A stretch of 64,000 nucleotides of DNA from a virus (taxonomy: Duplodnaviria; Heunggongvirae; Uroviricota; Caudoviricetes), in IMG/VR virus record IMGVR_UViG_2939127364_000001; one strand, 5' to 3'. The notes beneath the pieces were generated by a model. That model saw nothing but the letters and a program-made list of their open reading frames with translations. It had not been told where the DNA came from and did not search any database. The first letter of the stretch is position 1, and the number at the start of each line of letters is the position of its first letter. Shown here in pieces: positions 36,301-37,643 of this stretch. The translations under genes were made by a program, and so were the position numbers.

Positions 36301-36660
36301 TTAACCTTTCTTCATCAACTCGCGTTTAATTTCATCGGTACGCATCGTGACATCGGCAGCAGTGATCGCCTCGTTCAGCTTCACGATGTCCTCGATTTCC
36401 TGCGGTGTCTTCTCCGCAAGATGGAAAATAGCAGCACGAATCACATCAGAGCGGGTGAATTTCTCAAAGCGAGGGATGAACTTCATCATCTCCAGCAGTT
36501 CGAAGTATTCGTCTTCCAGTGACATTGTGCGGCTTTTGATTTTCTCTTTGCCACGAGTCGGGCGTCCCTGTGGTCTGACTGGTTGGCGCAAAGGAGTTGT
36601 GTTCTTAGCCGGTGCATCAGGCTCTTTGCGCTTTGCTAGGTCTCCCATTCTCATGGACAT
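36301..36660 (-). CDS. Putative centromere-binding partition protein (ParG/ParB-like small DNA-binding protein)
   Basis: 119 aa basic protein immediately downstream of, and coupled to, the ParA-like ATPase. Confidence 0.45.
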   Translation of the reverse strand: MSMRMGDLAKRKEPDAPAKNTTPLRQPVRPQGRPTRGKEKIKSRTMSLEDEYFELLEMMKFIPRFEKFTRSDVIRAAIFHLAEKTPQEIEDIVKLNEAITAADVTMRTDEIKRELMKKG

Positions 36661-37325
36661 TATTCTTCCTCCAGACTCAAGATGTAATCTACAAACTCTT
36701 CGAACTCGGCTTCTGCCTTCTTATCGCGTTCAGCGCCAGTCATTTCAAAGATAGAACGACCTGCCTCTTCCGCATCGTCATAAACGTTACGGTTGTACAG
36801 GTTAACCGGCGCAGCCTCGATGCCGAAAGTTTCGACAATTTCCTTCGCGGCCAGAATACGTGATACCTGGGAAGGCAATGACGGACACTGGTTTATTACC
36901 GCGCGGATCTTAACTTTCTCGTTCACATTGCGAACGTTGTCGATAATCGGGTCGATATCACGCAGAGATTTCAAATCACGACGTTTAGGGCGCAGCGGGA
37001 TGATGATTACATCAGCCATAAGCATCGCCAGACGCTGAATTTCGGAGTCAAAGCCACCAGCATCTACCACTACAAACTCAGCTCTACCCTGAAGCGATTT
37101 TAGGTGCTTAATGATGTCATCCTGAACGTATGCAAAAGGAATCAGCTCAAGGTCTTCGTTCTGTCGACGGTCTTCACACCAGCTCGTTGTCGTGCGCTGA
37201 ATATCTATATCGGTAATATAAACCTTCTTCTTCTTTTTGACTTTCAGGCAAACGGCAATTTGCTGGGCAACGGTGGATTTGCCAGGCCCGCCCTTTGTGC
37301 CGCCAACCACAAAGATCTTGGTCAT
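36660..37325 (-). CDS. ParA/ParF-family partition ATPase
   Basis: 221 aa; deviant Walker A VVGGTKGGPGKST. Confidence 0.7.
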   Translation of the reverse strand: MTKIFVVGGTKGGPGKSTVAQQIAVCLKVKKKKKVYITDIDIQRTTTSWCEDRRQNEDLELIPFAYVQDDIIKHLKSLQGRAEFVVVDAGGFDSEIQRLAMLMADVIIIPLRPKRRDLKSLRDIDPIIDNVRNVNEKVKIRAVINQCPSLPSQVSRILAAKEIVETFGIEAAPVNLYNRNVYDDAEEAGRSIFEMTGAERDKKAEAEFEEFVDYILSLEEE

Positions 37326-37643
37326 TGGAGAGTTCCCTTTGCGTATATAATTATCGTCTGAAACAACTTGTTTTCTTATATGTGATATAGCCTAAATGCC
37401 TACGGCTGCGGTGTAAAGGTTAAATGGTAGGTTGTGATTAACAATTGGCAATCATAGCTTGTATTTGTCTGTTGAAAAAAGTAACAATGACCTCTATATT
37501 ACAAGTACGGTGATATGCCGTACACAATTTGATAATGCACACGTAATGGGCTATAGCCTTTTAAAGTAATTTTTGAGTCGAAAACTCAGTTTGAACAGAG
37601 GAGATTGATGGCCTTCCTACATCACGGCCATCAGGAGGAATAC

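Follow-up and report, generated by a model that had tools for sequence, protein, structure and literature searches.

In the parFGH partition system of TP228, 4-bp ACTC boxes are arrayed with an 8-bp period in both parH and the OF operator. The omega protein of pSM19035 is a ribbon-helix-helix (RHH) protein that binds 7-bp units, and the P1 and N15 systems are of type Ia, with a large ParA that carries an N-terminal helix-turn-helix (HTH) domain and an HTH-type ParB. In the ParA/ParB system of pCXC100, ParB is a type Ib adaptor whose RHH fold escaped sequence searches, and the centromere consists of nine contiguous direct repeats of 9 nucleotides (nt) (PMC3074162). Phage-plasmids such as those of the SSU5/pHCM2 type are low-copy plasmids that must partition (Pfeifer et al. 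2021, PMC7969092). Here we describe a partition (par) cassette in a 64-kb stretch of DNA (the window; IMG/VR record IMGVR_UViG_2939127364_000001), in which the gene of a small ParA ATPase is followed by that of a protein of 119 amino acids (aa). On balance, we lean towards reading it as the par cassette of an SSU5/pHCM2-type phage-plasmid that works like a type Ib (ParF/ParG-type) system, with the 119-aa protein as an adaptor that would act at a short, non-iterated site.

Based on nucleotide similarity and on the shared order of lysis, par and helicase/primase genes, the window is assigned to the SSU5/pHCM2-type phage-plasmids, with the ParA gene and the small gene as a core pair of that group. 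In a nucleotide search, the 1.5 kb around the par locus showed 94-95% identity to non-mobilizable E. coli plasmids of ~110 kb and had matches in 730 plasmid records, the majority of them from Klebsiella, Escherichia, Enterobacter and Salmonella. The par locus was 94% identical to that of the Escherichia phages CMS-2020a, 93% to Cyrano and 90% to Salmonella phage SSU5, and the ParA and small-protein pair was present in 796 plasmid records. The gene order common to the annotated relatives is tail fibre, holin/endolysin/spanin, variable genes, ParA, small open reading frame (ORF), variable genes, phrog_2500 protein, DnaB-like helicase and primase. Homologous loci in relatives carry L-numbers as labels (L004, L012, L095 and so on); the complete SSU5 genome (103 kb) corresponds to L101, L094 and L100 together, and L002 is also an SSU5 record. 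The pairing of ParA with the small protein was kept in the six most distant loci examined (L004, L006, L095, L096, L098 and L099), where the context is SSU5-like. Like P1 ParAB-parS and N15 SopAB, the latter with dispersed centromeres, the cassette would serve the stable inheritance of a low-copy prophage-plasmid (PMC7969092), but it differs from both in being a small-ParA system with an orphan adaptor.

The parA gene (36660-37325, minus strand) encodes a small ParA/ParF-like deviant Walker-A ATPase of 221 aa, with KGGPGKST at residues 11-18. Its N-terminus reads MTKIFVVGGTKGGPGKST, in which the deviant Walker A motif has the signature lysine. The protein scored above the Pfam cut-offs for MipZ, AAA_31, CbiA and ParA, matched PHROG 164, 'ParA-like partition protein', with an E-value of 4e-51, and gave a full-length match to NCBIfam ParA_partition that stayed below the equivalog cut-off (E 3.4e-33). 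The closest solved relative was TP228 ParF (4dzz), to which residues 9-200 aligned at residues 8-190 (E 1.7e-11) with Walker A, A' and B in register. With 221 aa and no N-terminal HTH domain, the protein lies within the range of type Ib ParA proteins, which are about 190-310 aa long and lack an N-terminal DNA-binding domain. The ATPase is annotated as ParA in public records already.

Directly downstream lies the gene of the 119-aa protein (36301-36660, minus strand), the putative centromere-binding and ParA-activating partner. As read from the sequence, the parA stop codon and the start codon of the small gene overlap as TAATG, and a Shine-Dalgarno sequence GGAGGA (36667-36672, minus strand) lies inside the end of parA, 6 nt upstream of the small-gene start. 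The TAATG overlap was kept in all relatives examined, and the two genes form a co-transcribed, translationally coupled pair. No ParB domains were found in the small protein, so that the arrangement is the one typical of type Ib, with a small downstream adaptor gene unrelated to HTH ParB. Conservation per column was measured over 73 distinct homologous cassette sequences and reached 0.96, 0.99 and 0.81 at codon positions 1, 2 and 3 of parA and 0.99, 0.99 and 0.84 at those of the small gene. As third codon positions are much more variable than first and second positions, both genes encode proteins under purifying selection.

The isoelectric point (pI) of the small protein is 9.6 overall, but the protein is bipartite, with a pI of 11.6 for residues 1-47 and of 5.0 for residues 48-119. 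It belongs to PHROG 5111, 'unknown function', and had no Pfam match at E <= 0.1. The family is tiny, with 25 clusters among 5.8e9 proteins and 18 representatives among 1.84e9. In its alignment, a conserved MGDLAKR at the N-terminus is followed by a variable linker, then by the basic stretch RPQGRPTRGK and an invariant core, IKSRTMS-x-EDE ... FTRSDVIRAAI; residues L8, I41, R44, S47, E49, R70, D72, R75 and L81 are invariant. In an AlphaFold2 model made with this alignment, the predicted local distance difference test score was below ~56 at residues 1-40, region 1-47 was predicted to be disordered, and helices were predicted at residues 48-59, 70-82, 86-97 and 101-118. Following our reading of a strand, helix, T-R-S loop and helix pattern, the model weakly suggests the IKSRTMS strand and helices 48-59 and 70-82 as a candidate RHH core, with extra C-terminal helices at 86-118. 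Pfam RHH_1 was seen below threshold in three divergent members (E 0.005-0.11), with residues 49-85 on profile positions 3-36, and the protein of the window itself had a weak match to NCBIfam aCcr1, which we take to be an RHH regulator. Sequence and profile searches of the PDB with the small protein gave chance-level matches only.

As in TP228 parFGH, a ParF-type ATPase of near full-length similarity has its small partner directly downstream and control DNA upstream of its own gene, and in the partner a basic, flexible tail at the N-terminus precedes a short core for DNA binding, which is a candidate core here. In contrast to TP228, the partner is no ParG homologue, is 119 aa long as compared to 76 aa, and has two extra C-terminal helices. 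Homology to ParG (PF09274) was rejected after alignment of the family profile with hhalign, both to ParG, its sequence verified as PDB 1p94, and to an 18-member ParG alignment (probability 0.1, E ~0.5); no Pfam ParG match was found at E <= 10 in 17 family members. The gene layout is also that of pCXC100 ParA/ParB, although PDB searches showed no sequence similarity to that system. The adaptor belongs to an uncharacterised orphan family that is not ParG. In the record of phage Cyrano (OV696614.1, CYRAN_29) the gene is labelled 'RelE/ParE putative toxin', a label that we rejected because Pfam, PHROGs and NCBIfam show no such family and the predicted structure is a disordered tail followed by helices. 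In the SSU5 RefSeq record (NC_018843.1, SSU5_034) the adaptor is truncated to 96 aa, by which the conserved N-terminal MGDLAKR is lost. Both annotations of the adaptor gene look wrong, and no publications were found on the adaptor protein, the centromere or the SSU5 partition mechanism. The first-pass annotation of the window had placed both ORFs at the coordinates given above on the minus strand and had described a small Walker-type ParA ATPase coupled to a 119-aa basic protein. All of this was confirmed, by the ParA assignments in Pfam, NCBIfam and PHROG and by the TAATG overlap and the pI of 9.6; its term 'ParG-like', taken as family membership, had to be dropped.

The extent of the cassette was determined from the similarity between relatives. 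Upstream, similarity breaks off about 107 bp before the ParA ATG (55 distinct upstream sequences), and at least 12 unrelated sequences adjoin this breakpoint. Downstream, it stops at the stop codon of the small gene, beyond which at least 15 different contexts were found. Because similarity ends abruptly on both sides amid variable contexts, the cassette is delimited to 36301-37431, and this 1.13-kb segment, composed of the gene pair and 106 bp of upstream DNA, is inherited as one unit between two cargo hot spots.

The upstream hot spot is occupied in the window by a cargo addiction module that is divergent from parA, with a TacA-type antitoxin (Pfam TacA1, E 9e-26) at 37605-37913 and a GNAT acetyltransferase toxin (TacT/KacT-like) at 37921-38442, both on the plus strand. 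DNA of the window type at 37432-37604 co-occurred with a TacA homologue in 21 of 21 loci. Based on this co-occurrence and on its replacement in relatives, we attribute 37432-37604 to the control region of TacA/TacT and not to par; its palindromes GGCTATAGCC (37547-37556) and GTACGG-N7-CCGTAC (37505-37523) are probably TacA/TacT operators. On the other side of the cassette, between par and the replication genes, lies the gene of a 255-aa GIY-YIG (LEM-3-like) protein of PHROG 5356 (35481-36248, plus strand). SSU5 has three other genes at this position, which is the second cargo hot spot. A hairpin at 36262-36292, with a T-run on the plus strand and a folding energy of -25 kcal/mol, showed 100% co-occurrence with the GIY-YIG gene; it was rejected as a part of the cassette, as it travels with this inserted gene and is that gene's terminator.

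The only non-coding DNA linked to the cassette is therefore a 73-bp block at 37359-37431 (minus strand; -106 to -34 from the parA ATG), a candidate for promoter, operator and centromere alike. From -95 to -34 (62 bp) it is conserved at 0.98-0.99 per column, which is above any coding stretch, third codon positions being at 0.81-0.84; beyond -110, conservation falls to ~0.5-0.6. Two runs of 24 nt in the block are invariant (>= 97% per column), AGCCGTAGGCATTTAGGCTATATC (-82 to -59) and CATATAAGAAAACAAGTTGTTTCA. A cis-site hidden within the coding regions was considered and rejected: the longest invariant coding runs were 14-17 nt and lay at the Walker A region and at the gene junction.

No iterated repeats were found at the locus. 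The multiplicity of k-mers (k = 4-8, on the direct strand or on both strands, plus 7-mers with one mismatch) in 37326-37600, 37326-37431 and 36200-36300 was not above that of 300 dinucleotide-preserving shuffles; for the first two regions, the fraction of shuffles that reached the observed multiplicity was 0.17-1.0. Iterated repeats were also absent from six divergent relatives examined, and a search of Rfam gave no match. With repeats at chance level, and with Tandem Repeats Finder run on the whole window, an iterated-repeat centromere up- or downstream of the gene pair was rejected. Two further candidates were discarded. One, a tandem repeat of 21 bp at 9321-9365, has TTTAAC.TTTA in common with the par block, but lies inside a cargo ORF beside an insertion sequence (IS) element and is a coincidence. 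The sequence TTTAACCTTT occurs inverted at the two ends of the operon (37414-37424 and 36300-36310); its downstream copy encodes the ...KKG-stop end and is not conserved in relatives, so that chance explains it. The locus thus lacks the box array of TP228 and the repeats of pCXC100, and the 73-bp block is the best centromere candidate. The first-pass annotation had assigned the ~270 bp upstream of parA (37326-37600) to par control and expected the centromere there, while noting no clear iterated repeats by eye. That observation was borne out, the repeat search giving only short matches in two copies, but the expectation was not, as none rose above chance. Of the proposed control region, 37326-37431 is cassette-linked and 37432-37604 travels with TacA/TacT. 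Likewise, the description 'type Ib-like' holds for the ATPase and the gene layout and finds no support for a centromere of the repeat type.

The block contains a -35-like hexamer TTTACA (37412-37417, minus strand) in the architecture TTTACA-N17-TAGGCT. The same architecture was found in relatives, as TTTACA-17-TAGGCT in L012 and L095, TTTACA-17-TAGTAT in L096 and TTGTCA-17-TAGGCT in L004; the 17-nt spacing thus recurs in four loci whose small proteins are 31-64% identical. A sigma-70 promoter is a plausible interpretation. A promoter consensus scan did not report this architecture, because TAGGCT fits the consensus at only three of six positions. The invariant run from -82 to -59 also holds TAGGCA-TT-TAGGCT (37389-37402, minus strand), two TAGGC boxes 8 bp apart, the second of which is the -10-like hexamer. 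Both the 64-kb window and the SSU5 genome (103 kb) contain a single TAGGC-N3-TAGGC; this tandem would be the invariant element specific to par and is a candidate for the site that the small protein binds.

In SSU5-type neighbours, an exact 12-nt copy of TAGGCATTTAGG from the par promoter lies 18 nt past the stop codon of the small gene in the same orientation (L002 3969-3980, in the SSU5 record ~31540-31551; also L011 and L089, and with one mismatch L007 and L057). This copy is absent from the window. It would be either a coincidence or a second binding site; it lies inside SSU5_035 (codons S-R-H-L-G), and a synonymous AGG-to-AGA change breaks the copy of relatives. With about 0.01 copies expected, it is probably a coincidence.

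Next to the TAGGC tandem, the block carries a palindrome, TAAGAAAACAAGTTGTTTCAG (37358-37378, minus strand), with the core AAACAA-G-TTGTTT at 37361-37373, which is one copy of a genome-wide operator-like element. A second copy, CTAGAAAACAATTTGTTTAAA (34431-34451, minus strand), lies outside the cassette, 16-20 nt upstream of the start of the DnaB-like helicase gene. Exact AAACA-N3-TGTTT was found three times in the window, as compared to 0.17 expected, and none of 100 shuffles reached three. The parA copy was conserved upstream of parA in L004, L007, L012, L013 and L096, and the helicase copy held its position in the same five loci and was degenerate in SSU5. The complete SSU5 genome contained 14 exact cores and about 20 position-weight-matrix hits, nearly all of which point in the direction of the gene that follows and precede its start by 10-80 nt. 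In SSU5, copies stand before parA, the helicase gene, SSU5_049, nrdB and methyltransferase genes, among others, as well as before a dozen small ORFs of the early region and the terminase-proximal operon; there is one upstream of ant, and another in the divergent region that adjoins SSU5_116, a gene labelled 'repressor-like'. Copies in the early region of SSU5 are each preceded by a terminator tail and, always 9 nt away, a GATAAT-like hexamer. The consensus of the element is AAGAAAACAA-N-TTGTTTAA, and its copies in the window are at 37358-37378, 34431-34451, 23959-23981 and 2707-2727; the first fimbrial gene of the accessory region is preceded by a copy.

The par leader RNA folded no better than shuffles (z = +0.6). 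An RNA structure was therefore rejected for the palindrome, which would act at the DNA level. A par-specific centromere was rejected as well, the element being genome-wide with about 20 copies in SSU5. Because of the helicase-proximal copy, we assign the par palindrome to a regulon, and it resembles either an operator that serves a phage regulon across the genome, laid out much as the dispersed C1 operators of P1 are, or a class of phage promoters. No description of the palindromic element was found in literature on the motif sequences. L095 and L102 were considered as a test of the palindrome binder on a different backbone and set aside, as both are SSU5-like too and have no discriminating power.

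Taken together, the type Ib reading towards which we lean would work as follows. The 119-aa protein would dimerise through the RHH-like core (IKSRTMS strand, helices 48-59 and 70-82) and bind the conserved block, most likely at TAGGC-N3-TAGGC, which overlaps the -10-like hexamer. When bound, it would both repress the operon and form the partition complex. Its disordered basic N-terminal tail (MGDLAKR ... RPQGRPTRGK) would stimulate ATP hydrolysis by nucleoid-bound ParA, and copies of the plasmid would be moved apart by this activation. The centromere would accordingly not be a repeat array but a short site without iteration, an atypical arrangement for type Ib. The adjacent 13-bp palindrome would be a separate operator, through which the expression of par comes under a global control that it shares with the replication and early genes. 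Some points weigh against this reading. To our knowledge, all type Ib centromeres characterised so far consist of arrayed short repeats. The two TAGGC boxes 8 bp apart were found only in the window type and in L012, and L004, L013 and L095 have a single one; as these distant relatives keep only the box that coincides with the -10 hexamer, the tandem may simply be promoter sequence. Finally, the centromere could lie elsewhere on the 100-110 kb element.

Several of these observations could also be accommodated by a small protein with two functions, adaptor and global regulator in the manner of omega or KorB, for which the dispersed AAACAA-N-TTGTTT palindromes (about 20 in SSU5, three to four in the window) would be both operators and a multi-site centromere. 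As in pSM19035 delta/omega and RK2 IncC/KorB, a short palindrome of the par promoter recurs before replication and other genes. It is invariant in the par leader and is kept before parA even in relatives with no more than 31-50% identity in the small protein; S43, T45 and S47, strand residues predicted to face the DNA, are nearly invariant across types, and loci of the Moellerella type, which have lost the helicase copy, retain an AAGAAAAC half-site near parA. The centres of the half-sites lie 7 bp from each other, which is the heptad spacing of omega and short for typical HTH dimers. However, each site is a single palindrome and not a series of 7-10 heptads as for omega, and KorB is a ParB homologue of the HTH type. 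The sites are found before genes of the early region, of nucleotide metabolism, of an anti-repressor and even of the terminase operon, a pattern expected of a prophage master repressor or a promoter class, and one of them lies in the divergent region of the 'repressor-like' SSU5_116; moreover, L095 and L099 keep the protein pair without a good palindrome at parA. The distribution of the palindrome thus fits a prophage repressor regulon at least as well as an omega/KorB model, and we regard the two-function protein as unlikely. If true, it would couple partition to global repression of replication, early and packaging genes, with dispersed single palindromes as centromeres.

A centromere away from the cassette, elsewhere on the backbone, is to our mind quite improbable. 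One candidate for it is 35315-35369, a conserved AT-rich, near-perfect 55-bp palindrome followed by TCTTTT, upstream of the phrog_2500-helicase-primase operon. Its hairpin is conserved in the window, in SSU5 (L094 3457-3514) and in a Klebsiella relative, and folds with -27.8 kcal/mol (z = -7.6). Downstream centromeres are common elsewhere, as in P1 parS, F sopC and pB171 parC2, and the cargo-free loci L004 (3384-3580, 40-nt arms) and L096 (3458-3766, 65-nt arms) have large inverted repeats directly after the small gene, in the equivalent position, but these share no obvious sequence with 35315-35369. Variable cargo separates the hairpin from the cassette, so that the two are not co-inherited. 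Because UCUUUU follows, the hairpin fits an intrinsic terminator before the promoter of the next operon, a terminator-promoter arrangement that recurs all through the early region of SSU5. A terminator, an origin-like element or some other cis element are all conceivable, a terminator being more likely than a centromere. We give very little credence to a role of the two ParB_N proteins SSU5_125/126 (~34 kb away, outside the window) as the partners of ParA, which would leave the 119-aa protein as a transcriptional regulator or toxin only. SSU5 RefSeq names both, each with a ParB_N domain, 'ParB-like partition proteins', and 'parB' serves as a marker gene for SSU5 in a surveillance study (10.1101/2025.09.12.675607). 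However, SSU5_125/126 match ParB_N and no other Pfam family, such as the ParB HTH or dimerisation domain. They adjoin packaging genes (L100 19817-21183), as phage proteins with ParB-like nuclease domains often do. In addition, small ParF-like ParA proteins characteristically pair with the adjacent downstream small gene, the TAATG coupling is conserved, and neither RelE/ParE nor any other toxin family matches the 119-aa protein. The adaptor acting at a short site in the 73-bp block stays our preferred reading.

Some further features of the elements were observed. In the window, a motif of the AAGTAACT type recurs about 115 bp downstream of the 35315-35369 palindrome. The ORF at 1-1056 (plus strand), presumably that of RepA, the replication initiator of the plasmid, is followed at 1056-1660 by about 13 iterons of 19-21 bp in both orientations with the core TATCCACTGTAGTGAG; this iteron region, which lies 35 kb away from par, would be the origin of the plasmid. 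An accessory region extends over 1886-9289. In it, as read by eye from the translations, 1886-2583 is presumably IS1 InsA/InsB-like, 2816-6712 onward presumably a fimbrial subunit/chaperone/usher operon, and 8016-9289 presumably an IS3-family transposase. In SSU5, SSU5_121 (L100 16897-17343) is an FljA-like homologue of the 'repressor of phase-1 flagellin' (Pfam Flag1_repress, E 3e-81).

Phage-plasmids of the SSU5/pHCM2 type, some of them with resistance genes, occur widely in Salmonella Typhi, E. coli, Shigella, Klebsiella and Enterobacter. As plasmids, they are predicted from sequence to depend for their inheritance on a par cassette whose adaptor has so far been annotated as 'hypothetical' or, wrongly, as a toxin. 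The cassette is a portable unit of 1.13 kb and its sole linked cis-DNA is the repeat-free 73-bp block, save for which this is a fairly ordinary kind of partition system. The most noteworthy by-product is that the par promoter shares an operator-like palindrome with replication and early genes. If a single short site indeed serves as the centromere, it would be an unusual, minimal centromere for type Ib; otherwise, the cassette would be an ordinary partition module of these phage-plasmids.

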